Assembly: GCA_019873625.1 (NCBI GenBank)
Contig: JAIOAW010000003.1
Location: forward strand, 39,675-103,674
Reading direction: 5' to 3'
Origin: Chloroflexota bacterium
GTDB taxonomy: Bacteria; Chloroflexota; Anaerolineae; UBA1429
DNA length: 64,000 nt
Each line of letters opens with the position of its first letter. Positions within the stretch are counted from its first letter, which is position 1. The notes below the pieces were generated by a model. That model had not been told where the DNA came from. It saw only the letters and a program-made list of their open reading frames with translations, and ran no database searches. The position numbers were made by a program, and so were the translations under genes. This document shows, in pieces, positions 28,329 to 51,327 of this stretch.

Positions 28329-29420
28329 CTAGGGCTGTCTCTTCAACTCGGCCTCAAAGAAGGCGACGATCTCGCGCATCCCAGGGAGCATCGCCTGGAG
28401 CATCTCGATGATGGGCAGGCCGTATGGGCAGCGCGCCTCACAGGCCCCGCAGCGCGTGCAGGCCTCGAGGGCCTCAATGCGCGCCTTGCGGTAGGCGAGG
28501 TCGGCCTCCATCCCCGCGCGGCCCCAGGGATGCGCCCGGAACCCCTCCGGCCCCATCGTGCGGTAGTGATCGTACATCATATCGGTGCCCAAGTGCATAT
28601 GGATGGGGATGCCCACGGGGCAAGGGAGGCACTCGCCGCAGATGCGGCAGCGCGTGTGGTCCAATTTCTTTTGCCAGAGGGCCACCTCTTTTTCCTCGGC
28701 GGGCGTGAGGGTGGGATCGCCCTCCCCCGCGCTGAGGTCTTCATCCACCTCCGCCAGGGTGCTCACGCCGGGCACGGCCACGTCAATGGGCTGAGTGCGC
28801 AGCCACTTGAGCGCCAAACGCGCTGGGAGCAGCCCCGTGGCCACCGGTTTCATAATTGTGATGCCCACACCGTGCGCCCGGCAGTAGGGGATGAGCGCCT
28901 CCAGCGGCTGGCGCTCGACGAGGTTCATCGGCACGAGGATGAGGTCGAACGGGAAGCGCTGCAGCGCCTTGAGGAGAATATCCGCCCGGTGTGAGGTGCA
29001 GCCGATGTACTGCGTCATCTTTTCCTCGCGGGCGCGAAGCAAGGCTTGCAGGGCACCGCCTGGCCCTAGCCGCCGCGCGATATCCTCATCGGATTCCAGC
29101 GAGTGGAGGTGGATATTATTGACATAATCAAAATGTAAGCGCTCCAGCGATTCGTTGATTTGCCGCCAGGCGCCCTCTTCGGTGGGGTCGTTCGTTTTGG
29201 TCGAGATGAAAACGCGGTCACGCACATCCTGCAAGGCGAGGCCCAGTTTGATTTCCGAATCTCCATAGATGCGCGCCGTGTCGAAATAGTTCACGCCCCA
29301 CTCGAGTTCGCGCCGCACAAGGCGCAACCCGTGTTCCATGCCAAAGTTACCGAGCATAGCACAGCCCATACCGATGACCGAAACCTGCCAGCCTGTGCGC
29401 CCTAGGGTGCGGTATTCCAT
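28329..29420 (-). CDS. Aldo/keto reductase fused to a 2x[4Fe-4S] ferredoxin domain.
   Basis: An aldo/keto reductase TIM barrel at the N-terminus is followed by CRICGECLPCP and CTRCGACEARCP clusters. A paralog lies at 44799-45962. Confidence 0.7.
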   Translation of the reverse strand: MEYRTLGRTGWQVSVIGMGCAMLGNFGMEHGLRLVRRELEWGVNYFDTARIYGDSEIKLGLALQDVRDRVFISTKTNDPTEEGAWRQINESLERLHFDYVNNIHLHSLESDEDIARRLGPGGALQALLRAREEKMTQYIGCTSHRADILLKALQRFPFDLILVPMNLVERQPLEALIPYCRAHGVGITIMKPVATGLLPARLALKWLRTQPIDVAVPGVSTLAEVDEDLSAGEGDPTLTPAEEKEVALWQKKLDHTRCRICGECLPCPVGIPIHMHLGTDMMYDHYRTMGPEGFRAHPWGRAGMEADLAYRKARIEALEACTRCGACEARCPYGLPIIEMLQAMLPGMREIVAFFEAELKRQP

Positions 29421-35428: not shown

Positions 35429-35570
35429 CCGCCCTCCCCGATCTTTACAGAATGTTTCATCCCAGGGGGCCAAAGGGGGTTGCCTTGCCCCTCGGTTGAT
35501 GATATAATCGCCGCACATAGGTAGAGTGTCAAGGTACCTTTTCCGCTCCCCGTAGCGATTGGAGAGACCC

Positions 35571-37097
35571 ATGGCAGAAGAGACCGCACCTATTGAGCGT
35601 TCGACGCGCCCACAGACGCTCCTTGAGGAGGGCATTGCCTTGGCCCGCAGTGGAGATCGCGCCGGGGCGCGCGAGGTCTTTCGCGGGCTGATCCAGAAGA
35701 ACCCCTACGATGAAGACGCCTGGCTGTGGCTAGCCTGGGTGGCGGAATCAAAAGAGAGCGCCCTGCGCTGTTTGGAGGAGGCCCAGCGCCTGCTGCCCGA
35801 AAGCCCCCGCGTGGCCGAGGCCATCGCCTGGGCCAAGGAGCAACTCGCCGCTGAAGCGCCGCCCCCCGCACCGAAGCCCTCGCTCAAGCCCCAAGCCAAA
35901 GTGGAGCCGCTGCTGAGCCGTTTGGATGGCGCGGCGCGATCCGTCCACGAGGCGGCTGCGCAAACGCTGGATGATCTCAAAGACCGGGTGGCCCTTTCGG
36001 CGTCGCTGGCCAAAGTGTCGCCCGGGTTGAGGGGATGGGCCGTCTCGGCCCTTTCGATGGCGGCGCTGATCTTGCTTGCCTTTTTGATCTTCCTGGCGGC
36101 CTCGCAGTTCCGGCGGAACGTGCCCGTGGTGCGTGCCCTGGAGTTGCCTCCGCCGACCCTGGTCGAGGCCACGCCCACGCCCTCTGTGGCCCAACGCACA
36201 AGCGCCCTGTGGACCAAGGTGGATGTGGCCTGGGTGCGGCAAGATTGGGAGTCGGTCATCGCCAGCCTGGAGCAGATCCGCGCCCTTGACCCGCGCAATG
36301 AGGAGGCCCGCCAACGCTTGGCGGAAGCGTATCATCAACAGGGGTTGGTGTATATCGCCAAGAACGACCTGGACGCGGCGGCGGACGTCTTGAACAAGGC
36401 CATTCGGCTGGATGCCTCTAGCCCAAGCCTGCAAAAGACGCATGCTGACCTGCAACTGTATCGCCAGGCGCTAGATGCCTATTGGGCCAAAGATTGGAGC
36501 AAGGCCGTGTCGCTCCTTCAGCAAGTGTATCAAACGGCGCCCGCCTTCCGCGATACGCGCACCCTCCTCGGCCAGGCTTACTGCTACCTGGGCGTGGAGA
36601 TGATGAAAAAAGAGGAACTAGAGTCGGCGCGCAATGCCTTGCGCACCTCGGTAGAACTCTTGCCCGATTGGCCAGAGGGCCAAGCGCGCCTTACGGAGGT
36701 GGAGAACCTCATCACGCCGCCGCGCCGCATCGAAGTGGACCTTTCGGACAAGATCGTAACCGTATATGAGGATGGCAAGGTCATCAAGACCTTCCGTGCC
36801 TGCACGGGGCGCCCCTCCGCGCCCACCGTGGCTGGCCGCTACAAGGTCAAGACGAAACTCGATATGGCCTATGCCTCCCGTTGGGATCTGCAAATGCCCT
36901 ACTGGCTTGGCATTTACGATGCCGGCGGGAGCGAGAACGGCTTCCACGCCCTGCCGATCTTGAGCAATGGGCAGACCCTGTGGCGCAGCGCCCTGGGCAC
37001 GGGTTGTTCTTATGGGTGCATCGTCCTCGATACGCCCGATGCCAAATGGCTCTACGACTGGGCGGATATCGGCACAGTGGTCATCGTGACCAAGTGA
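35571..37097 (+). CDS. TPR-repeat / transmembrane / L,D-transpeptidase (YkuD) fusion protein.
   Basis: N-terminal TPRs are followed by one transmembrane helix and more TPRs. The C-terminal YkuD domain has the catalytic segment FHALP...[12 protein letters not shown]. The ATG follows GGAGAG. Confidence 0.75.
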
Positions 37098-37137: not shown

Positions 37138-38370
37138 ATGACTGTGGTAACCAGTGGGCCGAACCTCGCCTGGCTCGATGAGGAACTCCGCAAAGAGAAA
37201 GCCCTCGTTGAAGAACTGCGCAACCTGGTGGATAAGCAGCAGGTGATGCTCGTGGACCAAACCCAGCGCATCCTTGCGCTGGAAGATCGCCTGACGAAAC
37301 TGCAAGGGCAGTTGGGGCGCATTGGCGATGTGGAAGAGGCCCTTCAGCATACGCGCGATGAGATCGTCCTGCTCGTCTCCGAGATGAAGCAGGATTTCCA
37401 AAAGCGCGAGACAGAATCTCTTCGCCTACGCCAGGCCGAGAGGGAAAAGGACCAAAAGACCATCCAGGAGATTCTGCTCGCCCTTGACCGCATCGCGCCC
37501 CTTGAACAGGCCCTGGCCGTGCGCCAGGCCGAAGATCAGCGCTTGAACGAGGCGATTTTGCGCCTCCAGCAGGACGTGCAATCCCTGGCCAAACTGCCCA
37601 GCGCGGTGGAGGAGTGGCGACGCCAGTTGGCCGATGGGATTGCAAAGAATACCGTCGAGATTCGCCAGACGCAGGGGGAGATGGCCGAACTCCGCAAGGC
37701 CCAACAGGAAAGCGCCTCGCGGTTGCTCGTGGTCAACGATGCACTGGCCAAGGTGGAGCAGGCTGTCGCCGAACTACAGGTGATGCGCCAGGAGATCGCG
37801 GCCCAGCAGGAGCAGATGGCCGAACGCCAGCGGCGCGAGGATCGTTCTCGCGCCCAGACGATGACGGAGTGGGGCCGCCGCCTGGACGGTTTTGCCCATC
37901 AGATGGAGGCCTGGGCCGATCAACTGCGCCTATTTGCCGATCAGCACGAAAAGAACCGCCGCGTGTTGAGGGATATCCAGTCCCTCGCGCAAGAGGTCAG
38001 CCAACAGCAGGATCGGCTCCAGCAGTTGCAGCGCCTGGCCGAGGAGCAACTGCGCCGCGAAATGCGCGAGATGCGCGGCGAGAATGATCGCCGTTGGGCG
38101 CAAGAGATGGAACGCCGCGAGCAGATTTTAGCGGCCCAAGCCCAGCGCGATGACGCCCAAGACCTTCGGCTGACCGATCTCGAGCAGGGCCACGAAGATC
38201 ACACCGCCGCCCTGGCTAGCCTGGAGGAACGGTTGGCCGCCCTGCGCACCGAGTTGGAGGCCTTGGCCGCGCGTCAGCAGCGCTTCCACCGGCAGGTCCT
38301 GCAAGCCTTCCAAAAACAGATGGAGGCGTTCGTGGCGCAAGCCATTGCCGACCTCGGCCCGGAGGGGTAA
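37138..38370 (+). CDS. Long coiled-coil protein (rich in Gln, Glu, Arg and Leu).
   Basis: 410 aa with an almost continuous heptad-like pattern. No enzymatic motif is visible. Its stop lies 2 nt before the selB GTG. Confidence 0.5.
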   Translation: MTVVTSGPNLAWLDEELRKEKALVEELRNLVDKQQVMLVDQTQRILALEDRLTKLQGQLGRIGDVEEALQHTRDEIVLLVSEMKQDFQKRETESLRLRQAEREKDQKTIQEILLALDRIAPLEQALAVRQAEDQRLNEAILRLQQDVQSLAKLPSAVEEWRRQLADGIAKNTVEIRQTQGEMAELRKAQQESASRLLVVNDALAKVEQAVAELQVMRQEIAAQQEQMAERQRREDRSRAQTMTEWGRRLDGFAHQMEAWADQLRLFADQHEKNRRVLRDIQSLAQEVSQQQDRLQQLQRLAEEQLRREMREMRGENDRRWAQEMERREQILAAQAQRDDAQDLRLTDLEQGHEDHTAALASLEERLAALRTELEALAARQQRFHRQVLQAFQKQMEAFVAQAIADLGPEG

Positions 38371-38372
38371 CC

Positions 38373-40268
38373 GTGTTCGTCATCGGCACGGCGGGGCATG
38401 TGGATCATGGCAAATCGGCGCTCGTCCGTGCTCTGAGCGGCATCAACCCAGACCGCCTGCGCGAGGAGCAAGAGCGCGGTATGACCATTGACCTGGGGTT
38501 TGCCTGGATGACCCTGCCCAGCGGCCGCGAGGTGAGCATTGTGGATGTGCCGGGCCATGAGGATTTCATCAAGAATATGCTCGCGGGCATCGGCGGCATT
38601 GACGTGGCGCTCCTGGTGGTGGCGGCCGATGAATCGGTGATGCCGCAGACGCGCGAGCATTTGGCCATCCTCGATCTCCTGGGCATCGCGCAGGGCGTGG
38701 TGGCCCTGACCAAGTGCGACCTGGTAACCGACCCCGAATGGCTTGCCCTCGTCGAAGAGGAAGTGCGAGAGACGCTGGCGGGCACCACGCTCGAGGGGGC
38801 GCCCATCATCCCCGTCTCCGCAGTGCGGGGCGATGGGCTGGAGGCGCTCTTGGCTGCGCTGGATGCGGCGCTTGATCGCGCACAGCCGCGGCCAGACCTC
38901 GGCAGGCCCCGGTTGCCCATTGACCGCGTGTTCACCATCGCCGGTTTCGGCACGGTGGTTACGGGCACCCTTTCGGATGGCTCGCTGCGGGTGGGCGAGG
39001 AGGTCGTCATCCAGCCGGGAGAGATCAAGGCGCGCATTCGCGGCTTGCAGAGCCATCGCACGCGGGTGGAGGAGGTTCACCCTGGGGCGCGCGTGGCCGC
39101 GAACCTGGTTGGCCCCAGCACGGAGGCCCTCTATCGCGGCCAAGTCCTCTCGCGGCCGGGGACCTTTCGCCCCACCCAGTGGGTAGACGCCCAGTTGCGC
39201 CTCCTGCGCGAGGTGCCGTGGCCGCTCAAGCACAACGCGCTGGTGGATTTTTACAGCGGCGCGGCGCGCGTGCCGGCGCGCCTTCGCCTGCTCGATGCGG
39301 AGGCCCTGCAGCCTGGCCAGGTGGGCTGGGCACAGTTCGTTTTGCAGGAACCCATCGTTTTGGCGCGGGGCGACCGTTTTGTCATCCGGCTCCCCTCGCC
39401 GAGTATGACGCTGGGCGGGGGCGTGGTCATCCAGCCGCACTCGGCGCGGCGCCACAAGCGCTTCCGCCCCGAGGTCATCGCGACCTTGGAGGCGCTCGCG
39501 CGGGGTAACCCGGAGGAAATCCTCCTTCACCAGGCGGGGCAGGGGGTCATCCCTTTGGGCGCTTGGCTCAAGGGTTCGGGGCTAGGCGAGGAGACGGCGA
39601 GCGCCGCCGCGAGGGCGCTCGTCGAGCGGGGCGAGATGATCCTCCTCGCCGAGGGCTGGCCCGAAAATCCCTTGCAAAGCACCGTGGGTGTCCTTTCTCG
39701 CGCTGCTTGGCAAGCGCTCACGGCCAAGGCCGAGGAGGAGTTGCGGGCTTACCATGCCCGTTACCCCCTGCGGGCGGGTATGCCCCGTGAGGAATTCAAG
39801 AGCCGCCTGGGGTTGAACGGCGCCTTTTTGGGGGCCTTTGTAGATCGCGCCGTGCGCGAAGGACTATTGGGGGCCACGCCCGGCGAAGTGCACCTGGCCT
39901 CGTTCGCCGTGCGGCTCGAGGGGGCCGCTCAAGAGGTCGTGGAACGCACTTTGGCGGCGTTCTCAGCCAACCCCGCTCAACCTCCCACGGAGGACCAAGT
40001 GCAAGCCTGGCTGGGGCCAGACCTCTTGCAGTACCTCGTCGAATCGGGGCGGCTCATCCGTTCGGGCGAGGGAGTGCTCTTTGAGCGGGAGGCCTTTCAA
40101 CAGATGGTGAACGCCGTGACGGCCTATGTGCAGGAGCACGGCAAGATCACGGTGGCCGAAGCGCGAGACCTCTTGGGCACAAGCCGCAAGTACGCCTTGG
40201 CCCTCTTGGAGGAGATGGATCGCCTGCGCCTGACAAAACGTCTGGGAGATGTGCGCGTATTGCGCTAG
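38373..40268 (+). CDS. selB: Selenocysteine-specific translation elongation factor.
   Basis: The N-terminus MFVIGTAGHVDHGKSALVRAL is the G1 motif, and DVPGHEDF is G3. The EF-Tu-like domains are followed by a C-terminal extension that SelB uses to bind the selenocysteine insertion element (about 630 aa total). The start is GTG, 5 nt after GGAGGGG. Confidence 0.9.
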   Translation: MFVIGTAGHVDHGKSALVRALSGINPDRLREEQERGMTIDLGFAWMTLPSGREVSIVDVPGHEDFIKNMLAGIGGIDVALLVVAADESVMPQTREHLAILDLLGIAQGVVALTKCDLVTDPEWLALVEEEVRETLAGTTLEGAPIIPVSAVRGDGLEALLAALDAALDRAQPRPDLGRPRLPIDRVFTIAGFGTVVTGTLSDGSLRVGEEVVIQPGEIKARIRGLQSHRTRVEEVHPGARVAANLVGPSTEALYRGQVLSRPGTFRPTQWVDAQLRLLREVPWPLKHNALVDFYSGAARVPARLRLLDAEALQPGQVGWAQFVLQEPIVLARGDRFVIRLPSPSMTLGGGVVIQPHSARRHKRFRPEVIATLEALARGNPEEILLHQAGQGVIPLGAWLKGSGLGEETASAAARALVERGEMILLAEGWPENPLQSTVGVLSRAAWQALTAKAEEELRAYHARYPLRAGMPREEFKSRLGLNGAFLGAFVDRAVREGLLGATPGEVHLASFAVRLEGAAQEVVERTLAAFSANPAQPPTEDQVQAWLGPDLLQYLVESGRLIRSGEGVLFEREAFQQMVNAVTAYVQEHGKITVAEARDLLGTSRKYALALLEEMDRLRLTKRLGDVRVLR

Positions 40269-40325
40269 AGCGCCCTGGGCACACGGAGCGGCTCAGGGGC
40301 ACCTTTTGCATAGGTGAGGGAAGAG

Positions 40326-41585
40326 ATGCCCGATCGAACCATACAGTTTCCGCTCGATGAGTCCATCGCCCGCCGCGCGCGGGCGCGGGCGGCCTTTTTG
40401 GGCGAGAGCCTCGACGCCATCCTACAACGGAGTGTAACCACCTGGCTAGGAGATTGGGGGCTGCGGTTCGTCGAGCATACCGTCAAGGCGGGAGAGACGC
40501 TCTCCCTCATCGCGCGGATGTACTATCAGGATGGGACGAAAGCCTCCGTCATCGCCGCCTTCAACGATATTGAGAACCCCAACCTCCTGCGCGTGGGGCA
40601 GGTGCTGCGCATCCCCGAGGCCGCGCCGCTCCAACCCCCGCCCAAGGGCGAATCGCCCTATATCTTTGGGCTGCACGATCGCGGCGGGGAGTATCTTATG
40701 GCCTGGGCGGGCCGCAAGGGGTGGGTCCTGTGCACCGAAGAGATCGGTGCCAACCGCAACGATTGGACGGGCCGTTCCTATGCCGATTTGGCCGAGGCGG
40801 GTTACGGCGTCATTGTGCGGCTGAATCACGGTTACGGCGCCAAGGGGACGCTCCCCTATTCCCAATACTATACGGATTTTGCCATACGCTGCGGCAACTT
40901 TGTGGAGCGTTCGCCGGGGTGCCACATCTGGATCATCGGCAACGAGATGAACTTGGCTGTGGAACGCCCCGGCGGCCCGGCCAACGGCGAGTGGATCACG
41001 CCGGAAAAGTACATCCGCGCCTTTCGCGCCTGCCGCCAGGAGATTCGTCGCCGCCCCGGCCACGCCAACGATCAGGTCATCCCCGGGGCGGTGGGGCCGT
41101 GGAATGTGCAAACGCCCTACCCCGCCAACCCTAGCGGCGATTGGATCATCTATTTTCGAGATATCCTCCTGGGCCTGGAGGGCGAACTGGATGGCATCGC
41201 CCTGCACACCTACGCTCGAGATAGCAACCCGGCGAACATCGTGAGCGAACTCAAGATGGACCCGCCCTTTCAGCATCGCCGCAAGATGTTCCGCACCTAT
41301 ATTGATTTTATGGAGGCCATCCCCACCTCTTTGCGGCATTTGCCCGTGTACATTACCGAGACGAACCAGAACATCGCCTGGGATAACGCGAACCGTGGGT
41401 GGATCCAGCAGGCCTATGCCGAGATCAACCGCTGGAACAGCGACCCCACCCGCCAAAAGATTCGGGCGCTCATCCTTTACCGCTGGGAGCAATATCCGGG
41501 GGATATTTGGTACATCCGCGGCAAGAACGGGGTCATCGAGGATTTCCGTGCGGCCCTGCAATATGACTACCGCTGGTACGGCTGA
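40326..41585 (+). CDS. LysM-domain glycoside hydrolase (clan GH-A-like TIM barrel) with an N-terminal ribbon-helix-helix-like segment. Putative cell-wall hydrolase.
   Basis: The LysM domain is HTVKAGETLSLIARMYY...LLRVGQVLRIP. Candidate acid/base and nucleophile motifs WIIGNEMN and VYITETN lie about 130 aa apart. No signal peptide is present. Confidence 0.55.
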   Translation: MPDRTIQFPLDESIARRARARAAFLGESLDAILQRSVTTWLGDWGLRFVEHTVKAGETLSLIARMYYQDGTKASVIAAFNDIENPNLLRVGQVLRIPEAAPLQPPPKGESPYIFGLHDRGGEYLMAWAGRKGWVLCTEEIGANRNDWTGRSYADLAEAGYGVIVRLNHGYGAKGTLPYSQYYTDFAIRCGNFVERSPGCHIWIIGNEMNLAVERPGGPANGEWITPEKYIRAFRACRQEIRRRPGHANDQVIPGAVGPWNVQTPYPANPSGDWIIYFRDILLGLEGELDGIALHTYARDSNPANIVSELKMDPPFQHRRKMFRTYIDFMEAIPTSLRHLPVYITETNQNIAWDNANRGWIQQAYAEINRWNSDPTRQKIRALILYRWEQYPGDIWYIRGKNGVIEDFRAALQYDYRWYG

Positions 41586-41603
41586 TCACGAGGAGCCAAC
41601 GAT

Positions 41604-42587
41604 ATGGACAAAATCAAGGATCTTTTGGGAGGAAGCGGGCGGCGAGGCGAGAAAGAGCGCGCGGCGGGAGGAGGCGTCATCAAAGAGCCGCCGATGGAGA
41701 TTGATGGCCGCGTGATGACCGTGGAGGAATTCGCAGCCTATGTGGAGGGGCTGGATTTCCCGCCCCCCTTGCCTAACCGCATCTTTTTGCACCACACGTG
41801 GAAGCCTACGGTGGAGAGTTGGCGGGGGCGTTCGACCATCCTGGCGATGAAGGCCTATTACGAAAAACAACTCTGGTATGATAACCAGGGGAACCTGCAC
41901 GAGGGATGGACGGCCGGGCCGCATATCTTTGTCGCGCCGGATGGCATTTGGCTCTTTAGCGATCTCCGCTATGACGGTGTGGGCGTCTACGGTAACAACT
42001 ACCGCTCGCGCCATGTGGAGATGGTGGGGAACTATGACCAGGTGTTACCCAGCGGGGCGGTGCTCGAGAATACGATCGCTGTGCTCGGCATCTTGCACGA
42101 CCGGCTGGGGCTGGACCCCAAGAAACTCGCCTTCCACCGCGATTTTTCGACGAAATCCTGCCCAGGGTGGGCCGTCAAGAAGGAGTGGATCATCCCCCAG
42201 GTGGAGGCCTGGATGGAGGCCTACCGGCGGGCAAAGGAGGCCGAGGAGAGCACCCTGCGCCGTGCCCTCAAGCGCTTGCTCAAGGATTGGCTCAAATCTC
42301 CCAATGGACAGGCCGCTTTAGCCCAAGAGGCGGCGCGGCGCGGCTTCTTGGGCCCGATGACGGACGAAATCCCTATGGAGATTGACGACAAGGGCTATAT
42401 CGTCCAGGTGTTTGCCGAGGCACTCATCGTCCCGGCCAATGAGTGGGAACGCGTTCAGAGCCTCAAGGAATACGAAGAGGCCCAAAAGGCCGAAAAGGAG
42501 GCCCCGCCGGCCGTCTCGGGCAGTTCTGCGCCGAGTGTCGTAGCGCCGCCGACGGACCCCTATGATTTCACGGGCGAAATCCGCTAA
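41604..42587 (+). CDS. N-acetylmuramoyl-L-alanine amidase (Amidase_2 / PGRP domain).
   Basis: The PGRP/amidase_2 signature is IFLHHTW...HIFVAPDG...HVEMVGNYD...LAFHRDFSTKSCPG. No signal peptide is present. An acidic Lys/Glu-rich C-terminal tail follows. Confidence 0.8.
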   Translation: MDKIKDLLGGSGRRGEKERAAGGGVIKEPPMEIDGRVMTVEEFAAYVEGLDFPPPLPNRIFLHHTWKPTVESWRGRSTILAMKAYYEKQLWYDNQGNLHEGWTAGPHIFVAPDGIWLFSDLRYDGVGVYGNNYRSRHVEMVGNYDQVLPSGAVLENTIAVLGILHDRLGLDPKKLAFHRDFSTKSCPGWAVKKEWIIPQVEAWMEAYRRAKEAEESTLRRALKRLLKDWLKSPNGQAALAQEAARRGFLGPMTDEIPMEIDDKGYIVQVFAEALIVPANEWERVQSLKEYEEAQKAEKEAPPAVSGSSAPSVVAPPTDPYDFTGEIR

Positions 42588-43198: not shown

Positions 43199-44518
43199 TC
43201 AGCGGGTGCGCCCCTTGCCGCTAAAGAGCATCTGCAAGAGGACGGTGAGGCATCCCTCGCCGAGGGCTGGGCCGGAACTGGGCGGCGGTTGAGGCGGCTC
43301 GACCGGCTTGGGAGAGGGTTCGCTTTGATAGGCGCGCCAGGCATCCAGCCGGCCATAGCCCTGGACGTATGGCCCATCGCCGAGATCCAAGGCGCTGCTG
43401 AGCAGGCGATCGCGGATCTCTTGAGGGGTGAGCGAGGGGTAGGCCTGGAGGAGGAGGGCCACCACGCCTGCCGCGAGCGGCGTAGCCATACTCGTCCCTT
43501 GGGCGCTGGTGTAGTAATCATCCACCACGCGGCCCATCGCGGTGCCCTTGGCGCGGGGCGCGATGATATCTACCCCTGGCACGACGAGATCCGGTTTCTG
43601 GCGGCCGTCTGCCGTGGGGCCGCGCGAGGAGAAACTGGCCACGCGGTCTTGATCATCGCAGGCGCCGATGGTGAGGGCCAGCCGAGAGGCCCCCGGCGAC
43701 CCGATGGTGCGCGGGGCAGGGCCATCGTTGCCAGCCGCGACCACCACGTTGATGCCCCTTTCTACGGCGGCGTCGCACGTCTCCGAGAGGGGGTCTCGGC
43801 CATCGCTGGGGCCGGTGCTCCCCAGAGAGAGGCTGATAACCTGCACGCCCTTTTCCACCGCCCATTCGACGCCGGCGATGACGTCGCTCATCATCCCCTC
43901 GCCGTTGGCCCGCAGCACTTTGGCGCTGTACAGCGTCGCCTTGGGCGCCACGCCCCGGTAGCGCCCCCCGCTAGCCACCCCAGAGCCGGCGGCGATCCCC
44001 GCGCAGTGCGTGCCGTGGCCGTGGGCATCGCCAAGGCCCTCGCCCGAGAAATCGGCCATATCGGCCACACGCCCGGCGAAATCCGGGTGTTCGGCATCCA
44101 ACCCCGTATCCACGATGGCGATAGCCACGCCTTCGCCGGTCAGGCCGTTATCCCACAAGAGGGGCACGCCCACATGGGGTAGGGCAGTATCCAGAAAGGC
44201 GCGCACGGGCACATCTTCGTAGATGCGCACCACCTCGGGGTCCAGCGCCAGGCGCTCGATGGCCTCGGGCGTGGCGCGGAGGTGCGCAAAGGGGCGCAGG
44301 CGATACAGATAACTCTCGCGCACCCCGGCGATGTGCTCGCGGTGGCGCATCATACGCCGTGAGGCGCTGTAACGCACGATGACGGAAATGGGTTGATCGC
44401 TCGGCGCTTGCTGAAGCGCCCGCATAAGGCCGTCGGTCACCTTGGGCTGGATGCTCTCCACGGTGCTTACCTCCCAAAGATGCGCAGTTTGCGATCGGCA
44501 TCCACCGCTTTGACCCAA
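43199..44518 (-). CDS. Subtilisin-like serine protease (S8) with an N-terminal I9 propeptide. No signal peptide is recognisable.
   Basis: The catalytic triad segments are DTGLDAEHPDF, HGTHCAGIAAG and GTSMATPLAAGVVALL. The propeptide reads ISVIVRYS.... The start is uncertain, either 44518 or the ATG at 44425 (GGTGA ribosome-binding site). Confidence 0.85.
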   Translation of the reverse strand: MGQSGGCRSQTAHLWEVSTVESIQPKVTDGLMRALQQAPSDQPISVIVRYSASRRMMRHREHIAGVRESYLYRLRPFAHLRATPEAIERLALDPEVVRIYEDVPVRAFLDTALPHVGVPLLWDNGLTGEGVAIAIVDTGLDAEHPDFAGRVADMADFSGEGLGDAHGHGTHCAGIAAGSGVASGGRYRGVAPKATLYSAKVLRANGEGMMSDVIAGVEWAVEKGVQVISLSLGSTGPSDGRDPLSETCDAAVERGINVVVAAGNDGPAPRTIGSPGASRLALTIGACDDQDRVASFSSRGPTADGRQKPDLVVPGVDIIAPRAKGTAMGRVVDDYYTSAQGTSMATPLAAGVVALLLQAYPSLTPQEIRDRLLSSALDLGDGPYVQGYGRLDAWRAYQSEPSPKPVEPPQPPPSSGPALGEGCLTVLLQMLFSGKGRTR

Positions 44519-44727
44519 GATAGCCTAGCCACCTTGAGCGCCACGCGCGCGGGGCACGTGCCGCTGACGGAGGAGGTCAGCCGGTAGCGCCGTTTGACCT
44601 CCACCCCCATCTTTTGGAGCGCCTCTGCGCGGGCGTCCGCATCGCCTTCAAAGCGCACGATGATCGAGACGGTCTCATCGGGGTGCTCCTGCCAATATTT
44701 GCGCGTTTCGGCATCGAGCGTGGCCAT
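44467..44727 (-). CDS. Stand-alone peptidase-inhibitor I9 (subtilisin propeptide-like) protein.
   Basis: 86 aa. It reads VSIIVRFEGDADARAEALQKMGVEVKRRYRLTSSVSG. A strong ribosome-binding site AAGGAGAG is present. Its 3' end overlaps the longest S8 ORF by 52 nt in another frame. Confidence 0.55.
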   Translation of the reverse strand: MATLDAETRKYWQEHPDETVSIIVRFEGDADARAEALQKMGVEVKRRYRLTSSVSGTCPARVALKVARLSWVKAVDADRKLRIFGR

Positions 44728-44798: not shown

Positions 44799-45962
44799 TT
44801 AGGGCTGCGGGCAGGCTTGGGGATCGTACGGCTGCCCCTCTTCGAGCACGCCCCGCACGATGAGCATCCATTCGCTGATGGGGATGTTCTGTGGGCATTT
44901 CGGCTCACAGGTGCGGCACTGGATGCATGCCGAGGCACGCCTCTCTTGAGAGAAAAAGCGCGCATAGAAACGCCGCGTCTCCTCGATTTGGTTGAACATC
45001 ACAGCGTTGTTAAATGTCGTGAAATTCTCGGGGATATCCACGCCGTTGGGGCAGGGCATACAGTAGTGGCAGGCCGTGCACGGGATGGGGCACAGCGAAC
45101 GGTAGCGGTCGCGGGCGCGATGGATCGTCTCCAGTTCCTCTGGGGTGAGCGTGCCCACGCCCGAGCGTTCGGCGCTGGCCACGTTCTCGATGACTTGTTG
45201 GAGGGTGCTCATCCCGCTCAAGACCACCGAAACCTCCGGCTGGTTCCACAGCCACTGGAGTGCCCAGTCGGCGGGCGTGCGCCGCACGGGGGCTGATTCC
45301 CACACTTCTTGGACGGCCGGCGGCGGGGTGACGAGCCTCCCGCCCAAAAGCGGCTCCATAACCACAACGCCCATCCCTTTCGAGGCGGCATAGCGCAGGC
45401 CCCGCGTGCCCGCCTGGTATTCCTCGTTCATATAGTTGTATTGGATTTGGCACATATCCCAATCGAAGGCATCCACGATCTCGCGAAAGGCCTCGAACGT
45501 ATCGTGGAAGGAAAAGCCCGCCAGGCGGATGCGCCCTTCGCACCGCTTTTTATCTAAAAAGTCGAGCACGCCCAGATTGTATGCGGCCAGCCAACGTTCG
45601 CGGCGCAGGCCGTGGAGGAGATAACAGTCGAGGTGATCCGTCTGCAAGCGTTCCAACTGCTCGTTGAAGAGGCGGTCAAAATCCTCGTACGTTTGCGCGG
45701 CGGGCAGCCACAACTTGGTGGCCAGCACCACGCGGTCGCGGCGCCCTTGGAGGACGCGCCCCAGGAATCGTTCGCTATTGCCCCCATGGTAGCCGTAAGC
45801 CGTATCGAAATAGTTCACGCCGTGCTCGATGGCGTAATCCACCATACGGGTCGCCTCGGGTTCATCAATCACATCGTGCGTGCCGCGAATCGGCAAGCGC
45901 ATACAGCCGAACCCCAGCGCCGAAACGCGCACTCCAGAACGCCCTAATACACGGTACTGCAT
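44799..45962 (-). CDS. Aldo/keto reductase fused to a 2x[4Fe-4S] ferredoxin domain (paralog of 28329-29420).
   Basis: An aldo/keto reductase barrel is followed by CPIPCTACHYCMPCP and CIQCRTCEPKCP. The ribosome-binding site is AGGAGGTG. Confidence 0.7.
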   Translation of the reverse strand: MQYRVLGRSGVRVSALGFGCMRLPIRGTHDVIDEPEATRMVDYAIEHGVNYFDTAYGYHGGNSERFLGRVLQGRRDRVVLATKLWLPAAQTYEDFDRLFNEQLERLQTDHLDCYLLHGLRRERWLAAYNLGVLDFLDKKRCEGRIRLAGFSFHDTFEAFREIVDAFDWDMCQIQYNYMNEEYQAGTRGLRYAASKGMGVVVMEPLLGGRLVTPPPAVQEVWESAPVRRTPADWALQWLWNQPEVSVVLSGMSTLQQVIENVASAERSGVGTLTPEELETIHRARDRYRSLCPIPCTACHYCMPCPNGVDIPENFTTFNNAVMFNQIEETRRFYARFFSQERRASACIQCRTCEPKCPQNIPISEWMLIVRGVLEEGQPYDPQACPQP

Positions 45963-46095: not shown

Positions 46096-48246
46096 ATGGC
46101 CCCATTTGATGACCTGGCCCAGGAATTGACGCCCGAACAGCGGCGCGTCGTCTCTTTCGCCCGCGAGGGGGGTGCGAGCCTCTTGGTGCGGGGCCTGCCC
46201 GGCACGGGCAAGACGACGGCCCTGGTGCGCCGCTTGGCCGCGATGGTGAGCGAGGGGCGCCGGCCGTATGAAATCCTCGTCTTGGTACCCCAACGCGCCC
46301 CTGGAGACCGCTTCGAGCGCGCCCTCTCGGTGCTGCAAGCGCCCACGCGCGGCGGCGCCGAAATCGTTACATTCTACAGCCTCTCGCGCCGGGGCGTGGC
46401 CCTCTTTTGGCCGCTGGTGGCCGCTCAGGCGGGTTTTGCCCACCCGGAGCGCGAACCCGTCTTCCTCACGTTGGAGACGGCCCAATATTATATGTGGCGC
46501 ATCGTCGAGCCGCTCATCCGTGAACAGGGCTATTTTAACGATTTGGCCATCCCACGGGGGCGGCTCCTTTCGCAACTCATTGATAACTTGAACAAGTCGG
46601 CGCTCGTCGGGTTTGACCATACGGATATCTATGCCCGGCTGCGGGGGGCTTGGGTGGGCGCCCAAGATCGCCTCCATCGCTTTTGGCAGGCCCAAGATTG
46701 CGCGACGCGCTTTCGCGCCTTTTGCTTGGAGCACAATCTGCTCGATTTCTCGCTGACGACGGAGGTCTATTGCCGTTACCTCCTGGCGAACCTCGTCTAT
46801 CGGCGCTACGTGCAGGCGCGCTATCGCCACCTCATCGTAGATAACCTGGAAGAAAACGTCCCCGTGGCCCAAGATTTCATCGCTTGGATGCTCACCTGGT
46901 GCCAGTCGGCCGTGCTGGCCCTCGACGAGCGGGGCGGGCATCGCATCTTCTTGGGGGCCGATGCCGAGGGCGCCCTGGAGGTGGGGCAGCGCTGCCAAGA
47001 GACCCTCTCCCTATCGCGCCTCCTGAAGCCTACCGAGCACCTGCTGGCCTTTGTGGATGCGGTGAACGCCAATATCGGCGCGCGCGCCGCGCCGGCTGCG
47101 CCCCAAGGCGAGGCGCACCGCGCCACGGTGGTGAGCGGCGGCGGAGAGACGCGCTATTGGATCAGTATGCTCCGTTGGGTGGCCGAGCAAGTGGCCGCTT
47201 TGGTGGCCCAGGGCACGGCCCCTGGCGAGATCGCCCTCATCGCGCCCTATGTGAGCGATGTGATGCGCTTTGCCGTGGAAGAAGAACTCGCCCGTTACGA
47301 TATCCCCGTGCACCTTCTGCGCCCGGCCACCCCTTTGCGCGATGACCCCATCGTCCGCGGACTCCTCATTCTCCTCTGCCTGGCGCACCCCCATTGGGCG
47401 CTAGAGTTCGGCGGGGAACCGTATGCCCTCTCTGAGGAGGACGTGGCGCTCGCCCTCAAGGTGGCGCTCGCCGGCCTGGACCCCCTCCGCGCGCGCTATC
47501 TGGCGCTGGAGGCCTGGCGCGGCGAAGGCCTTCTTCCCTTGGCCGATTCGGCCCCAGCCCGTTTGTGGGAGCGCGTGGGCTTTCAGGTGCGCGAGCCTTA
47601 CGAGACCTTGCGCTCGTGGTTAGAGACGTACCGCCAAGGCCCGCCAGAACCGCTGGATATCCTCCTCAGCCGCCTGTTCGGCGATCTCCTTTCGCGGCCG
47701 GGGTTCGGCTTCTATCAGCAGCCGGAAGCGGCGCGCGCCTACGGCCGGCTGGTCGAATCCACGCGCAAATTCCGCGAGGCGGTAATGAGCGATGGCGAGG
47801 ACCCCACGCGCGTGGCGCGCGAGTACGTTCAACTCGTCCTGCGGGGGGTAGCGAGCGCCGAATACCTTCTGGATTGGCCTCGCCCGCCTCGCCCCGATGC
47901 GGTCATCCTTGGGCCAGCCTATGCCTACATCACGCGCGATATGCGCTCCGAGTACCAATTTTGGCTCGACCTCGGCTCCGATGGCTGGCTGAACCGCCCC
48001 AATCAGCCGCTGACGCACCCTTACGTCCTCTCGCGGCGCTGGCCCATTGGCCGGCCCTGGCGAGATGTGGAGGAAGAGGAGGCGCGCCGCGAAACCTTGG
48101 CCCGCGTCCTCACGGGGTTGGCGGCGCGCTGTAACCGAGGGCTGTATTTGGCCTTCAGCGAACTCGGCCTGGACGGTGCGGAGCAGCGCGGGCGCTTGCA
48201 AATGGCCATCGTAACCGTCTTGGCGAGGATAAAGCGCTATGCCTGA
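46096..48246 (+). CDS. UvrD-like helicase-family protein with a degenerate motif II (AddB-like ATP-binding subunit lacking a nuclease domain).
   Basis: Walker A is GLPGTGKTT and motif Ia-like is LVLVPQRAP. The motif II position reads HLIVDNLEEN instead of DExx. Length is 716 aa. The stop overlaps the next gene's ATG by 8 nt. Confidence 0.6.
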   Translation: MAPFDDLAQELTPEQRRVVSFAREGGASLLVRGLPGTGKTTALVRRLAAMVSEGRRPYEILVLVPQRAPGDRFERALSVLQAPTRGGAEIVTFYSLSRRGVALFWPLVAAQAGFAHPEREPVFLTLETAQYYMWRIVEPLIREQGYFNDLAIPRGRLLSQLIDNLNKSALVGFDHTDIYARLRGAWVGAQDRLHRFWQAQDCATRFRAFCLEHNLLDFSLTTEVYCRYLLANLVYRRYVQARYRHLIVDNLEENVPVAQDFIAWMLTWCQSAVLALDERGGHRIFLGADAEGALEVGQRCQETLSLSRLLKPTEHLLAFVDAVNANIGARAAPAAPQGEAHRATVVSGGGETRYWISMLRWVAEQVAALVAQGTAPGEIALIAPYVSDVMRFAVEEELARYDIPVHLLRPATPLRDDPIVRGLLILLCLAHPHWALEFGGEPYALSEEDVALALKVALAGLDPLRARYLALEAWRGEGLLPLADSAPARLWERVGFQVREPYETLRSWLETYRQGPPEPLDILLSRLFGDLLSRPGFGFYQQPEAARAYGRLVESTRKFREAVMSDGEDPTRVAREYVQLVLRGVASAEYLLDWPRPPRPDAVILGPAYAYITRDMRSEYQFWLDLGSDGWLNRPNQPLTHPYVLSRRWPIGRPWRDVEEEEARRETLARVLTGLAARCNRGLYLAFSELGLDGAEQRGRLQMAIVTVLARIKRYA

Positions 48247-50506
48247 AACCCTCTTTGGCTATCGGCTGAGGCGCGCGCAAGAGGCGGTGATGCGCTACGA
48301 AGGGGGGCGCATGGCCATCTCGGCGGTGCCCGGCAGCGGCAAGACCCTGACCTTGGCGCTCTTGGCGGCCAAGTTGATCATCGAGGGGAAGGTCGGCCCT
48401 GCGAGCGAGGTCTTGGTGGTTACGGTACAAAATTCGGCGGTGGATAACATCTCTCAGCGCATCCGCCGCCTATTGACGGAACAAAAACTGCCGCCGGTGG
48501 GCTACCGCGTGTGTACGTTGCACAAATTGGCGAGCGACATCCTACGCCGGCGGATGGATTTGGCGGGTGTGGCCGATGACCTCGTCATCGTGGATGATGC
48601 GGAATCCGACCGGATGATGCGCAACGCCGCTGAGGTGTGGCGGCTCAACCACGCGGCCCTGTGGGCGAGTTTCCTCCCGGTGGATTGGCAAGGGGGGCGC
48701 GATCGGCTGGAAAAGGAGTGGCTTGAGGAGATGGTGCGCATCGGCAAGGAGGTGACAAAACTCTGCAAGCACCTGCGCTTTACCCCGGAACGGGCACGGG
48801 AGTTTGTCGAGGCGCACCTTGCCGATGCCGAGATGACGCGCCTGGGCGTGGCCTTGTATGACCATTACGATCGCACGCTTAGGGCGAGGGGGGGCTTGGA
48901 TTTCGACGACCTCATCTGGCGGGCGATTGACGCGCTGGAGCAAGACCCCTCCTTTGCCGAAAACTTGCGCCAGCGCTGGCCGTACATCCTGGAAGATGAG
49001 GCGCAGGATAGTTCCCCCTTGCAGGAAAGCATCTTGCGCCTCCTTTGCGGCGCAGATGGCCACTGGGTGCGGATGGGCGACCCGAACCAGGCCATCAACG
49101 CCACCTTCACCGCCGCCGACCCGCGCTTCTTCCGGCGCTTTCTCGAAGAGCCGCACGTGCGGCGGCTGACCCTCCCCGAATCGGGCCGCTGCGCCCGGCC
49201 CATCCTAGAGATGGCCAATGCGCTCGTCCGTTGGGCGAGCCGCGAGCACCCCGAGAGGGCCATCCGTGAGATGGCCTTCGAACCGCAGGAGATCATCCCC
49301 ACCACGCCAGAAGATGCCCAGCAAAATCCGCCAGCCGAGGAGTGCCGCATCTATTTTCGGGCCGAGCCGTTCGACAAGGTGGATGAGGAGGCCCAGTTTG
49401 TGGCCAGGGCGGCGGCGAATTACATCAAGCGATATCCCCATCACGCTGTGGCCGTCCTGTGCCCGGCGGCGTGGCAGGGCGCCAAGGTGGTGGAGGAGTT
49501 CAAGCGCCTGCCCAAGGTGCCCTATGAGGACCTTTTGCGCACCACGCCCGAGGCGCGCAACGTCGCCCGGCTCTTGGCTGCCGCCTGCCGTTACGTCGGA
49601 GACCCCACCCAAACGCGCCCTTTGGTGGCGCTCTGGCGCGAGTTGGCGTTAGCGGGCCTCTGGGGAGAGGTGCCTGCGAGCCGAGTGCGAGACGTTTCGA
49701 CCATCTTGCGCAGTGTAGCGTTCCCCGAGTTCTTTTTCCCTAGGGCGACGTTAACGCTCGCCGAACGCTTGCCCGAGAACGTCTCCCTCTCGCCGGAGGA
49801 TGAGGCGCTCTTGGGGCGCTTTACCGCCTTAGTGGGGCGCTGGCTGAGGGCCGCCGATTTGCCCATAGACCAGATGCTCCTCGCGATGGGGCAAGACCTC
49901 TTTGGCGAGCGCGATGAGGACCTGGGGGCGCTGGCCATCTGCCACACCCTGGCGCTCAAGATGCGCACCCTCGCGCAGATTCACCCCGAAATGCGCCCCC
50001 ACGAGTATGCCAGCGAGTTGGAGGCCATCGCCCAGAACCGCCGCACCCTGCAAGAACTTGCCCTGCCCGATGCGGCCTACCTGACCAAGCCGGGCGTCAT
50101 CGTGGTAACCACGATGCACAAGGCCAAGGGGTTGGAGTGGGATGCGGTGTACCTGATGTGCGTGGATAGCCTGGAATTCCCCGCCACGGTGGATGACCCC
50201 TCGCGCGACGAACCGTACTATATGCCGGGCCGGGCGCCCGCCCTGGAGGCGCGCAAACGCCTGGAACGGGCCGCTGAAGAGGGAGTCTACACGGAAGGGA
50301 CGGATGAGGTGATCGCCCAGGGGCGGTTAGAGACGATCGCCGAGCGCCTTAGGCTGCTCTACGTTGCCATCACGCGGGCGCGGCGCAACCTGGCCTTCAC
50401 CTGGAGCCGGCACAATGGGAGCCGCCCCGTGGAGCCAGCCCTGGCGCTGAGCGTGCTACGCGCTTGGGCGGAGACAGCCCGTGCGGAGGAGGGGCTATGG
50501 CCTTGA
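48239..50506 (+). CDS. UvrD/PcrA-family ATP-dependent DNA helicase.
   Basis: Walker A is AVPGSGKT, motif II is ILEDEAQDSS, motif III is GDPNQAI and motif VI is VAITRARR. Length is 755 aa. No nuclease domain is present. Confidence 0.85.
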   Translation: MPETLFGYRLRRAQEAVMRYEGGRMAISAVPGSGKTLTLALLAAKLIIEGKVGPASEVLVVTVQNSAVDNISQRIRRLLTEQKLPPVGYRVCTLHKLASDILRRRMDLAGVADDLVIVDDAESDRMMRNAAEVWRLNHAALWASFLPVDWQGGRDRLEKEWLEEMVRIGKEVTKLCKHLRFTPERAREFVEAHLADAEMTRLGVALYDHYDRTLRARGGLDFDDLIWRAIDALEQDPSFAENLRQRWPYILEDEAQDSSPLQESILRLLCGADGHWVRMGDPNQAINATFTAADPRFFRRFLEEPHVRRLTLPESGRCARPILEMANALVRWASREHPERAIREMAFEPQEIIPTTPEDAQQNPPAEECRIYFRAEPFDKVDEEAQFVARAAANYIKRYPHHAVAVLCPAAWQGAKVVEEFKRLPKVPYEDLLRTTPEARNVARLLAAACRYVGDPTQTRPLVALWRELALAGLWGEVPASRVRDVSTILRSVAFPEFFFPRATLTLAERLPENVSLSPEDEALLGRFTALVGRWLRAADLPIDQMLLAMGQDLFGERDEDLGALAICHTLALKMRTLAQIHPEMRPHEYASELEAIAQNRRTLQELALPDAAYLTKPGVIVVTTMHKAKGLEWDAVYLMCVDSLEFPATVDDPSRDEPYYMPGRAPALEARKRLERAAEEGVYTEGTDEVIAQGRLETIAERLRLLYVAITRARRNLAFTWSRHNGSRPVEPALALSVLRAWAETARAEEGLWP

Positions 50507-51327
50507 TCGAAGCGGGGCACCTTTTCAGCCAGCACAGCCTCAACACCTATCTGCGGTGCAAGCGCCGTTTTTGGCTGAAATACATCGCACAACAACCCTG
50601 GCCTATGCCCGAGCAGGAAAATCTCTCGGAATATCAGGCGCACCTGGCACGGGGGCGCACCTTTCATCAATGGGTGGCGCGGGCGCTCTTGGGCGTGGAT
50701 GCCGATCTCCTGGGCCAAGCGGCCGCCGCCTGCGGCGATGAGGCGCTCCTTGCGTGGTGGCTGGCCTTTGGGCGGTTTGACCTTTCGATTGTGCCGGAGG
50801 GCCTGCGCGAAGTGGAGTTGCCGCTCATCGTGCCCTTGGGGGAATATCGCCTCTATGCCCGTTATGACCTCGTGGCCTTTTCGCCTTCGGGCGAGGCCGT
50901 CATCGTAGATTGGAAAACCTTGGAACGCCTGCCCTCTTGGCGAGTGATGCGGGAGCGCGTGCAGACGCGCGTTTACCTTTACGTGCTCGCTTCAGCCGGG
51001 CACATCGTAACCGGCGGCGCACCGCTGGACCCCTCCCGCCTGGAGATGATTTACTGGTTCGCCCCCTTTGAAGAGATGTTTCGCATTCCCTATTCGCGGC
51101 GCGAGTTTCAAGCGCATCGGCAGGCCCTGCTACGCCTGGTGGAAGAGATCGCGGCCTCGCCGCCGGAGGCCTTTGTTCCCACCGAAAACCCACGCGAATG
51201 CGCCTTCTGCAACTACCGCAGCCTGTGCGGGCGCCAAGAGGCCCCCAGAGACCCCTCTCTCAACTGGCTCGACGAGGAGATAGATTTCGCCCTCGATCTC
51301 GACGAGGCCATCGAGATGACCTACTAA
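50496..51327 (+). CDS. PD-(D/E)XK nuclease with a Cas4/AddB-type iron-sulfur cluster (four Cys).
   Basis: The Cys pattern is LRCKRRF ... ECAFCNYRSLCG (Cx2Cx5C). The nuclease motifs are RYDLVAF and IVDWKT. The ATG overlaps the upstream stop (ATGGCCTTGA) and follows GGAGGAGGGG. Confidence 0.75.

Follow-up and report, generated by a model that had tools for sequence, protein, structure and literature searches.

Peptidoglycan glycosidases fall into few described families. A review of wall hydrolases lists the glucosaminidases of glycoside hydrolase (GH) families GH3 and GH73 and the lysozymes of GH22, GH24 and GH25, and it names GH25 and GH73 as the only two known to accompany an amidase domain; Amidase_2 occurs with one or the other in Atl- and CwlA-type autolysins (PMC6403190). 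The stretch analysed here, called the window, is a 64,000-nucleotide (nt) piece of contig JAIOAW010000003.1 (positions 39,675 to 103,674, forward strand; assembly GCA_019873625.1) from a filamentous Chloroflexota bacterium of the Anaerolineae. Directly downstream of selB it contains two adjacent genes that probably encode a cell-wall hydrolase pair of a different make: gene 1 encodes a ribbon-helix-helix (RHH) N-terminus, a LysM domain and a barrel of the clan GH-A type, and gene 2 encodes an Amidase_2 protein (Table 1). Fold and catalytic residues support this assignment, as do exclusively wall-directed domain partners, gene fusions and the use of the barrel by phages; the assignment agrees with a first-pass annotation that had proposed an endolysin-like glycosidase and amidase pair from sequence alone.

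Staphylococcal Atl (Amidase_2 with GH73) and the CwlA type of Bacillus subtilis (Amidase_2 with GH25) have in common with the window pair an amidase, a predicted wall glycosidase and wall-binding repeats, and here too the two activities are either fused or split. However, Atl carries a signal peptide and a propeptide and is secreted, whereas the window pair is leaderless, and the glycosidase of Atl has the α/β lysozyme-like fold of GH73 without an RHH, whereas the window pair has a GH-A barrel with one. Multi-catalytic-domain phage endolysins (amidase, M23, muramidase) are likewise leaderless and modular, and the same barrel occurs in Chloroflexota phages; in contrast to these, the window genes lie outside a phage, without a holin, and carry an RHH-LysM head that is absent from the phage proteins. 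What sets the window pair apart from both the Atl/CwlA autolysins and the endolysins is its glycosidase fold, its RHH-LysM head, the missing leaders and its place in a selB operon.

LytA of Streptococcus pneumoniae is a leaderless chromosomal Amidase_2 autolysin with C-terminal choline-binding repeats that is cytoplasmic until released. From what is generally known of LytA, it shares with gene 2 the combination of a leaderless chromosomal Amidase_2 and a C-terminal repeat domain, but this domain is unrelated, LytA lacks a partner glycosidase gene, and neither selB nor an L,D-transpeptidase gene shares an operon with it. The library searched contained no paper combining endolysin, GH-A, peptidoglycan and barrel, and searches for endolysins of Chloroflexota phages and for selB in Chloroflexi turned up nothing on an RHH-LysM-barrel module.

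A GH-A-type barrel outside the described families

In an AlphaFold2 model of the gene 1 product built from 34 homologs (mean predicted local distance difference test score, pLDDT, of 90), the last 310 residues fold into a (β/α)8 barrel. Foldseek matched this barrel to clan GH-A barrels only (GH26, GH128, GH39, GH5 and GH79), the top structural neighbours being GH39 (including the Psl hydrolase PslG), GH26 and GH128. N210-E211 lies directly after β4 and E349 in β7, the arrangement that defines clan GH-A; common to the barrel and these families are the (β/α)8 fold, an acid/base Glu after β4 within an N-E pair, a nucleophile Glu after β7, and a conserved Arg, His, His-x-Tyr and Trp. Among 138 family members, 24 of them from phages, H121, R169, N171, N210, E211, H298, Y300, E349, W374 and R390 are 93-100% conserved, and N210-E211 and E349 are kept in 98-100%. 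The GH-A-style barrel with NE...E motifs that had been read from the translation is thus borne out by fold and conservation, and the peptides quoted at that stage (RTIQFPLDES…, WIIGNEMN and VYITETN) are all found in gene 1.

Identity to the top structural neighbours is only 11-15%, so these matches establish neither membership in their families nor a refutation of wall-directed activity; the barrel further differs from the clan GH-A families in having wall-lytic partners rather than plant- or algal-glycan modules. No GH model reached its threshold in Pfam or NCBIfam, where the only hit was DUF5722 (12 bits against a cut-off of 30.5), and judged against these models the barrel falls outside any described GH family. 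Given its modelled fold and conserved catalytic residues, the barrel is best described as a retaining clan GH-A-type β-glycosidase that is probably active.

An exhaustive search with the barrel alone recovered 1064 cluster representatives (P numbers below), 601 of them below 1e-30; those with a source name are from Chloroflexota. The family has no Pfam, NCBIfam or PHROG model. Most representatives start directly with the barrel and have no leader, while signal peptides are found in about 15 of 148, and several place an N-terminal cytoplasmic module (ATPase or EAD1) and a membrane helix before the barrel. Some members are therefore predicted to hold the barrel outside the cell, by means of a signal peptide or a membrane helix.

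Across the family the barrel is joined to one, two or three copies of Amidase_2, to coiled coils, to discoidin or Ig-like domains, and to WD40 or STAND-type ATPases; further wall-specific partners are SH3_3, Muramidase (PF11860) and Peptidase_M23. P0343 and P0384 combine the barrel, Amidase_2 and the tail motif of gene 2 in one chain and are single-chain versions of both window genes. P0269 joins the barrel to LysM and Amidase_2; P0247, P0255 and a protein of locus L054 join it to a coiled coil and three Amidase_2 domains; and P0315 joins it to SH3 and a muramidase. By analogy, the fusions with Amidase_2, M23, muramidase, LysM and SH3, together with the use of the barrel in phage lysins, suggest that it acts as a peptidoglycan glycosidase.

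In another set of family members the barrel stands as an output domain behind the conflict-system modules EAD1, nSTAND1, STAND-like ATPase and WD40, usually with a membrane helix between. P0290 consists of EAD1, a membrane helix, SH3 and the barrel, and P0388 of an nSTAND1 NTPase, a membrane helix and the barrel, while P0276 and P0312 have a STAND-like ATPase or WD40 before the barrel and Amidase_2. As far as domain order can tell, these four fusions would imply regulated wall attack in multicellular Chloroflexota. Giant leaderless paralogs of 900-1480 amino acids also occur, at L054 (7665-12113), L072 (8031-12206) and L037 (2718-9795); L037 has two in tandem, and that of L054 combines the barrel with Ig-like domains, coiled coils and three Amidase_2 domains. 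They occupy a conserved chromosomal spot between an aspS-like gene, seen in L054 and L072, and a scpA-like gene, seen in each of the three; these neighbours were recognised by N-terminal motifs only.

The same barrel in phage lysins

The barrel is present in 29 IMG/VR phage contigs. Two that were examined encode a DNA polymerase, a primase, a thymidylate synthase and a large terminase, a gene content that marks the barrel-bearing contigs as apparently real phages. Their barrel proteins are leaderless, 550-770 amino acids long, and consist of an N-terminal barrel followed by Peptidase_M23 or the PF11860 muramidase, the latter in L107; PHROGs holds no family for the barrel part. In L096, L099, L102, L104 and L107, an open reading frame (ORF) of 60-100 amino acids, predicted to form one or two membrane helices, directly adjoins the lysin gene, a raw adjacency given without a chance expectation; these small ORFs would be placed as a holin is. 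By this domain evidence, the likeness to endolysins appears closer than the first-pass annotation could tell, the same barrel being used in phage genomes together with Peptidase_M23 or a muramidase.

The RHH-LysM head of gene 1

The short RHH-like N-terminus and the LysM domain, both initially proposed from sequence alone, proved genuine. A profile of the N-terminal 46 residues (columns) matched ParG in the PDB (1p94, E=1.3e-7), with the viral RHH protein E73 next, and 16 of 30 members individually match Pfam ParG, while others match FitA-like_RHH, RHH_10 or RHH_1. The AlphaFold2 model places the RHH helices at residues 16-29 and 33-45. LysM, the sole Pfam family matched in the gene 1 product, scores 46.5 bits against a cut-off of 20.9 (PF01476), matches Ecp6 and a Thermus endopeptidase in the PDB, and shows the expected strand-helix-helix-strand (βααβ) order in the model.

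Although the β-α-α module matches the ParG profile, it differs from ParG, the Arc/MetJ RHH proteins and PutA in being fused to LysM and a putative wall hydrolase, and its strand residues are unconserved. In the ParG register, the positions that should point towards DNA vary between orthologs and are often acidic, which favours a role in dimerisation; most likely, the RHH is a dimerisation module that would make LysM bivalent. A Tat or Sec signal hidden in this N-terminus was considered and rejected: the segment is a folded RHH that is duplicated in variant proteins, and it has no leader.

The amidase

The gene 2 product passes the Amidase_2 model (PF01510, 35.3 bits against a cut-off of 26) and has the Amidase_2 catalytic set, as its early assignment to the Amidase_2/PGRP type had it. 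The five residues listed in Table 1 are invariant in 29 orthologs, and their zinc-ligand and catalytic roles are assigned by analogy. By fold, the amidase model (pLDDT 81) resembles endolysins of the amidase type, PGRPs of insects and mammals, T7 lysozyme and, further down the ranking, AmpD; the best PDB sequence match is the Clostridium perfringens amidase endolysin 7f5i. The third ligand position is a Cys, in contrast to the Asp of the AmpD-type His-His-Asp site, and an NCBIfam scan of the protein gave no AmpD match.

Of the acidic, highly charged tail described earlier for this protein, only the last ~30 residues, acidic and modelled with low confidence, answer to the description; the rest (residues ~190-300) is a conserved folded domain with a pLDDT mostly of ~80-94 and one block of 61. 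The motif of this domain is weakly repeated near the N-terminus of the same amidase, and it recurs in 2-4 tandem copies after the barrel and Amidase_2 in P0343 and P0384, with one weak Pfam LGFP match. Tandem recurrence behind barrel and Amidase_2 is the behaviour of wall-binding repeats, and by this analogy the C-terminal domain is a probable wall-binding repeat.

At their other end, the amidase orthologs begin with M-D-x-L-K-A-F-W-x-G-F (in the window within 41604-41720, residues 1-40), which appears amphipathic by eye and is followed by a variable basic linker and a conserved IKEPPMEIDGR; the segment is disordered in the model and may contact the membrane or the wall.

Absence of export signals and of phage genes

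Neither protein has a signal peptide, a hydrophobic leader or a membrane helix, and the same holds for 34 gene 1 and 29 amidase orthologs, which extends the initial reading of the two translations to their relatives. The maximum 19-residue Kyte-Doolittle hydropathy is <=1.5 in all of them, compared with 2.68 for the helix at residue 161 of the YkuD protein encoded upstream and 3.53 (12-residue window) for a signal peptide from the same window; the same organism encodes normal signal peptides elsewhere in the window. The first-pass annotation had also noted no holin, integrase or phage gene nearby, and none was found among the flanking genes examined, within about 10 kb. Readings as spore-cortex lytic enzymes or as a prophage lysis cassette are unsupported, the latter being ruled out by flanking gene content and chromosomal synteny. 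PADLOC gave no match for the barrel protein, the amidase, SelB or the YkuD protein and only weak JetC coiled-coil noise for the coiled-coil protein, and a known anti-phage defence system was rejected on this ground.

A conserved operon with selB

The two hydrolase genes close a cluster of five tightly packed genes on the + strand, separated by 41, 2, 57 and 18 nt, gaps that leave no room for an extra gene. The first-pass annotation had inferred an operon with the coiled-coil gene and selB, which the short gaps and a linkage kept across more than 20 genomes corroborate, but it was silent on the YkuD L,D-transpeptidase gene upstream, which is also part of the operon and is the first gene of the conserved type-1 cluster described below. 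A terminator scan found nothing convincing within the cluster. GC content is 0.63 in the window, even across the region and unremarkable.

The ATG start of gene 1 (40326) is preceded by a GGTGAGG Shine-Dalgarno sequence, and the selB stop is TAG 40266-40268, so the gap between them is 57 nt; an earlier figure of 45 bp had used the in-frame GTG at 40314, while the 18 nt given for the next gap stands. Gene 2 follows with a GAGGAG Shine-Dalgarno sequence, and in both hydrolase genes the Shine-Dalgarno sequence is at the expected distance. An independent gene call on a public contig gave identical 419- and 327-residue products, and exact or near-identical public copies from Chloroflexota metagenome-assembled genomes are labelled just 'LysM domain-containing protein' and 'N-acetylmuramoyl-L-alanine amidase'. 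Two special arrangements at the selB/gene 1 junction were rejected. Read-through fusion was suggested by a shared frame (here and in L001), but selB ends in TAG with a second in-frame TAG, and the frames differ in L004 and L005; a hairpin in the 57-nt gap resembling a selenocysteine insertion sequence or a terminator folds no better than shuffled sequence (z = -0.85).

Table 1. Coordinates of the operon and of the domains encoded by its last two genes
Feature	Position in window	Strand	Basis and remarks
Sigma-70-like promoter candidate, TTGCCT-17-TATAAT with TG	35480..35508	+	Upstream of first operon gene; consensus match only
TPR / membrane helix (~residues 161-180) / TPR / YkuD L,D-transpeptidase	35559..37097	+	Pfam YkuD 2.5e-20 and TPR families
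Coiled-coil protein, 410 aa, no family	37138..38370	+	Stop 2 nt from selB start
selB, selenocysteine-specific elongation factor	38373..40268	+	TIGR00475, Pfam SelB domains, E. coli SelB alignment
Gene 1, RHH-LysM-GH-A barrel protein, 419 aa	40326..41585	+	Pfam, AlphaFold2 model, profile search
ParG-like RHH module, ending in invariant W-x-G-x-W motif	40329..40451	+	Residues ~6-46, numbered from GTG 40314
LysM domain	40476..40616	+	Residues 55-101; PF01476 3.4e-12
(β/α)8 barrel, clan GH-A type, unclassified family	40641..41576	+	Predicted acid/base N210-E211 at 40941-40946; predicted nucleophile E349 at 41358-41360
Gene 2, Amidase_2 (N-acetylmuramoyl-L-alanine amidase type) protein, 327 aa	41604..42587	+	Pfam, orthologs, model
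Amidase_2 catalytic domain	41772..42167	+	Residues 57-188; PF01510; H63, E139, H178, K184, C186 invariant
Conserved C-terminal amidase domain	42171..42503	+	Motif LGxxTxEIPMEIDDxGYxVQxFAEAL; kept in 29 orthologs

Synteny was examined in species-representative genomes, from which 80 loci were kept (L numbers denote loci throughout); the relatives in the fetched loci are all Chloroflexota, mostly Anaerolineae. Two arrangements recur. Type 1, in about 22 Anaerolineae loci, has the gene order of the window (YkuD, coiled-coil, selB, RHH-LysM-barrel, amidase) at protein identities of 44-78%. Type 2, in seven loci, has the coiled-coil gene and selB, usually NurA, an unknown gene and HerA, and then a gene for a 540-residue barrel protein in which RHH and LysM are duplicated as a unit; no amidase gene is adjacent. 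The insert between selB and the doubled gene consists of NurA, a 227-residue unknown protein and a HerA-type ATPase (L003 4498-7987; also L028, L029, L032 and L033), and is absent from the type-2 locus L031, where the spacing is ~716 nt, so it is not universal. The apparent presence of two selB-linked paralogs in one genome (L003 and L004, GCA_040960625.1) was dismissed: the contigs differ in GC content (0.607 and 0.666) and no species-representative genome among the 80 loci has both types, so a mixed bin is likely.

Of the 30 loci whose flanks are long enough, 29 have selB upstream of the gene for the RHH-LysM-barrel protein. The exception, L036, has directly before that gene a 100-residue ORF (7649-7951, +) with a strongly hydrophobic N-terminal segment, which could be a holin-like partner. 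The coiled-coil gene is always directly upstream of selB, with a gap of -1 to 8 nt (27 loci), a spacing indicative of translational coupling. This association (window 37138-40268, +; L001-L034) holds even where coiled-coil identity is 24-28%. The coiled-coil protein itself has no Pfam match and only weak SMC/JetC coiled-coil matches.

SelB looks canonical by sequence: it scores 337 bits in the TIGR00475 equivalog model (cut-off 242), contains the Pfam GTP_EFTU, SelB beta-barrel and SelB winged-helix domains 2 and 3, and matches E. coli SelB (5lzb) over its full length with E=2.5e-71. D184, R185 and R240, which we take to be the selenocysteine-pocket residues, are invariant. No tRNA-Sec was found near selB in the window or in 27 related loci.

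A proposed role and its alternatives

We lean, with some reserve, towards a chromosomal, vertically inherited autolysin pair similar to endolysins or LytA, stored in the cytoplasm and acting upon membrane breach or by another route in autolysis or septal remodelling. The barrel and the amidase would attack the same wall at two bonds, the glycan strand and the stem-peptide link, and LysM, a wall-binding domain, would carry gene 1 to the wall. Export signals are absent, as in phage endolysins and LytA, so both enzymes are probably cytoplasmic until the membrane is breached or a non-Sec delivery takes place. Their likeliest job would be controlled autolysis or septal-wall remodelling in a filament (cell separation, fragmentation or sacrificial lysis), during which the co-expressed YkuD L,D-transpeptidase may re-crosslink the wall. 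The RHH would serve to dimerise the protein, as a homodimer in type 1, while type 2 would have two RHH+LysM units in a single chain. We infer bond specificity, timing and the route to the wall from these comparisons.

Several observations count against such a role. The operon encodes neither a holin nor an exporter, so access to the wall is unexplained, and the wall-lytic model does not account for the presence of selB. The closest barrels with solved structures have xylans, mannans, glucans and Psl as their substrates, not peptidoglycan, so the substrate here could be another wall polymer. In the amidase, the GPH motif seems to lack the Tyr that corresponds to Y46 of T7 lysozyme and Y78 of PGRP-LB, with Pro in its place in an alignment made by eye. 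The RHH is typically a cytoplasmic DNA-binding fold, which, with no leader on either protein, is just as compatible with a role inside the cell; MurQ is present, so cytoplasmic muropeptide catabolism exists.

These last points lead to a self-regulated recycling of peptidoglycan fragments in the cytoplasm, with an AmpD-like amidase acting on imported muropeptides, a NagZ-like barrel that takes off a sugar, LysM as a muropeptide sensor and the whole of gene 1 as an enzyme-repressor in the manner of PutA, which is a precedent for an RHH ahead of a TIM-barrel enzyme. Such a system would be in keeping with the ParG-type DNA-binding fold of the RHH, the lack of a leader in either protein or any ortholog, the appearance of AmpD (an Amidase_2 fold) among the structural matches of the amidase, and the MurQ gene of the window. 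It is nevertheless unlikely, since the same barrel serves as a phage lysin domain fused to M23 or a muramidase, is joined to wall or surface modules (SH3, discoidin, Ig-like) and is predicted to be extracellular in the relatives with a signal peptide or membrane helix. The amidase shares its His-His-Cys ligands with endolysins, PGRPs and T7 lysozyme, and its fold search ranks AmpD well below endolysins; the operon encodes no permease, kinase or etherase, MurQ lying 33 kb away; and the variable, often acidic strand residues do not favour DNA binding. A minor but real chance remains for a division of labour in which LysM only anchors, the amidase does the peptidoglycan work and the barrel cuts a wall-attached polymer or a sheath or exopolysaccharide. 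The GH39 (PslG), GH26 and GH128 neighbours accord with this, as do the fusions to a bona fide muramidase (L107, P0315), which suggest a different, complementary bond; but identity to those families is low, the recurrent partners (Amidase_2, M23, LysM, SH3) are all directed at peptidoglycan, and an N-acetylglucosaminidase would be equally complementary.

EAD1-linked effectors that attack peptidoglycan have been described (PMC7159879), and the barrel paralogs wired to EAD1, nSTAND1, STAND-like ATPase and WD40 would fit a suicide or abortive-infection device, inactive in the cytoplasm and lysing the cell upon infection or damage, as programmed death in a multicellular filament. For the window genes this is very unlikely: they have no EAD, STAND or sensor domain and no PADLOC match, and each is a single-copy core gene kept in synteny, unlike the variable genes of islands. 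A remnant of a prophage lysis cassette would agree with leaderless enzymes, the pairing of glycosidase and amidase and the phage homologs of the barrel, but it is effectively refuted by synteny: the five-gene order persists with housekeeping neighbours in about 22 species-level genomes at 53-78% protein identity, the flanks contain no phage genes and the GC content is not unusual.

In filamentous Chloroflexales, cryo-tomography has revealed septal channels that cross the shared wall and whose biogenesis genes are unknown (PMC7332563), and the conserved hydrolase/transpeptidase operon is interesting in that light. The core of coiled-coil gene, selB and RHH-LysM-barrel gene, with YkuD and the amidase in type 1, might form a septal-wall remodelling device of the Anaerolineae that opens septal channels or breaks filaments, its leaderless lysins reaching the wall outside the Sec pathway or solely in cells that are sacrificed, and the RHH and/or the SelB/coiled-coil pair providing regulatory coupling. 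This specific proposal is quite unlikely.

If the barrel does cut peptidoglycan, the few known wall glycosidases (GH3, 22, 23, 24, 25, 73 and a small number of others) would be joined by a family with the GH-A fold, and the phage lysins of an abundant, poorly cultured phylum by a new catalytic module. The pair also poses a question of cell biology, namely how conserved, housekeeping-looking wall hydrolases reach the wall, or are kept from it, without an export signal. The RHH-LysM fusion and the near-invariant linkage to selB are concrete, testable oddities.

Neighbouring genes

In many type-1 loci (L001, L012-L017, L020-L024, L115), the convergent neighbour of the amidase gene is a pair that in the window consists of a subtilase (Peptidase_S8) gene without a hydrophobic leader (43199-44518, -) and, preceding it, a conserved 86-residue ORF with no family match (44467-44727, -). 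MurQ, the N-acetylmuramic acid 6-phosphate etherase, is encoded at 6563-~7450 (-) and scores 374 bits in TIGR00274 (cut-off 302), so the organism can catabolise or recycle N-acetylmuramic acid; its gene adjoins genes for a glycyl-radical enzyme and a sugar ABC transporter. Further downstream of the amidase (46096-51327, +), two UvrD-family helicase genes are followed by a PD-(D/E)XK nuclease gene and resemble an AddAB/AdnAB-like end-resection set. At 28329-29420 (-) and 44799-45962 (-), the window also encodes two aldo/keto reductase paralogs that carry fused 4Fe-4S dicluster domains.

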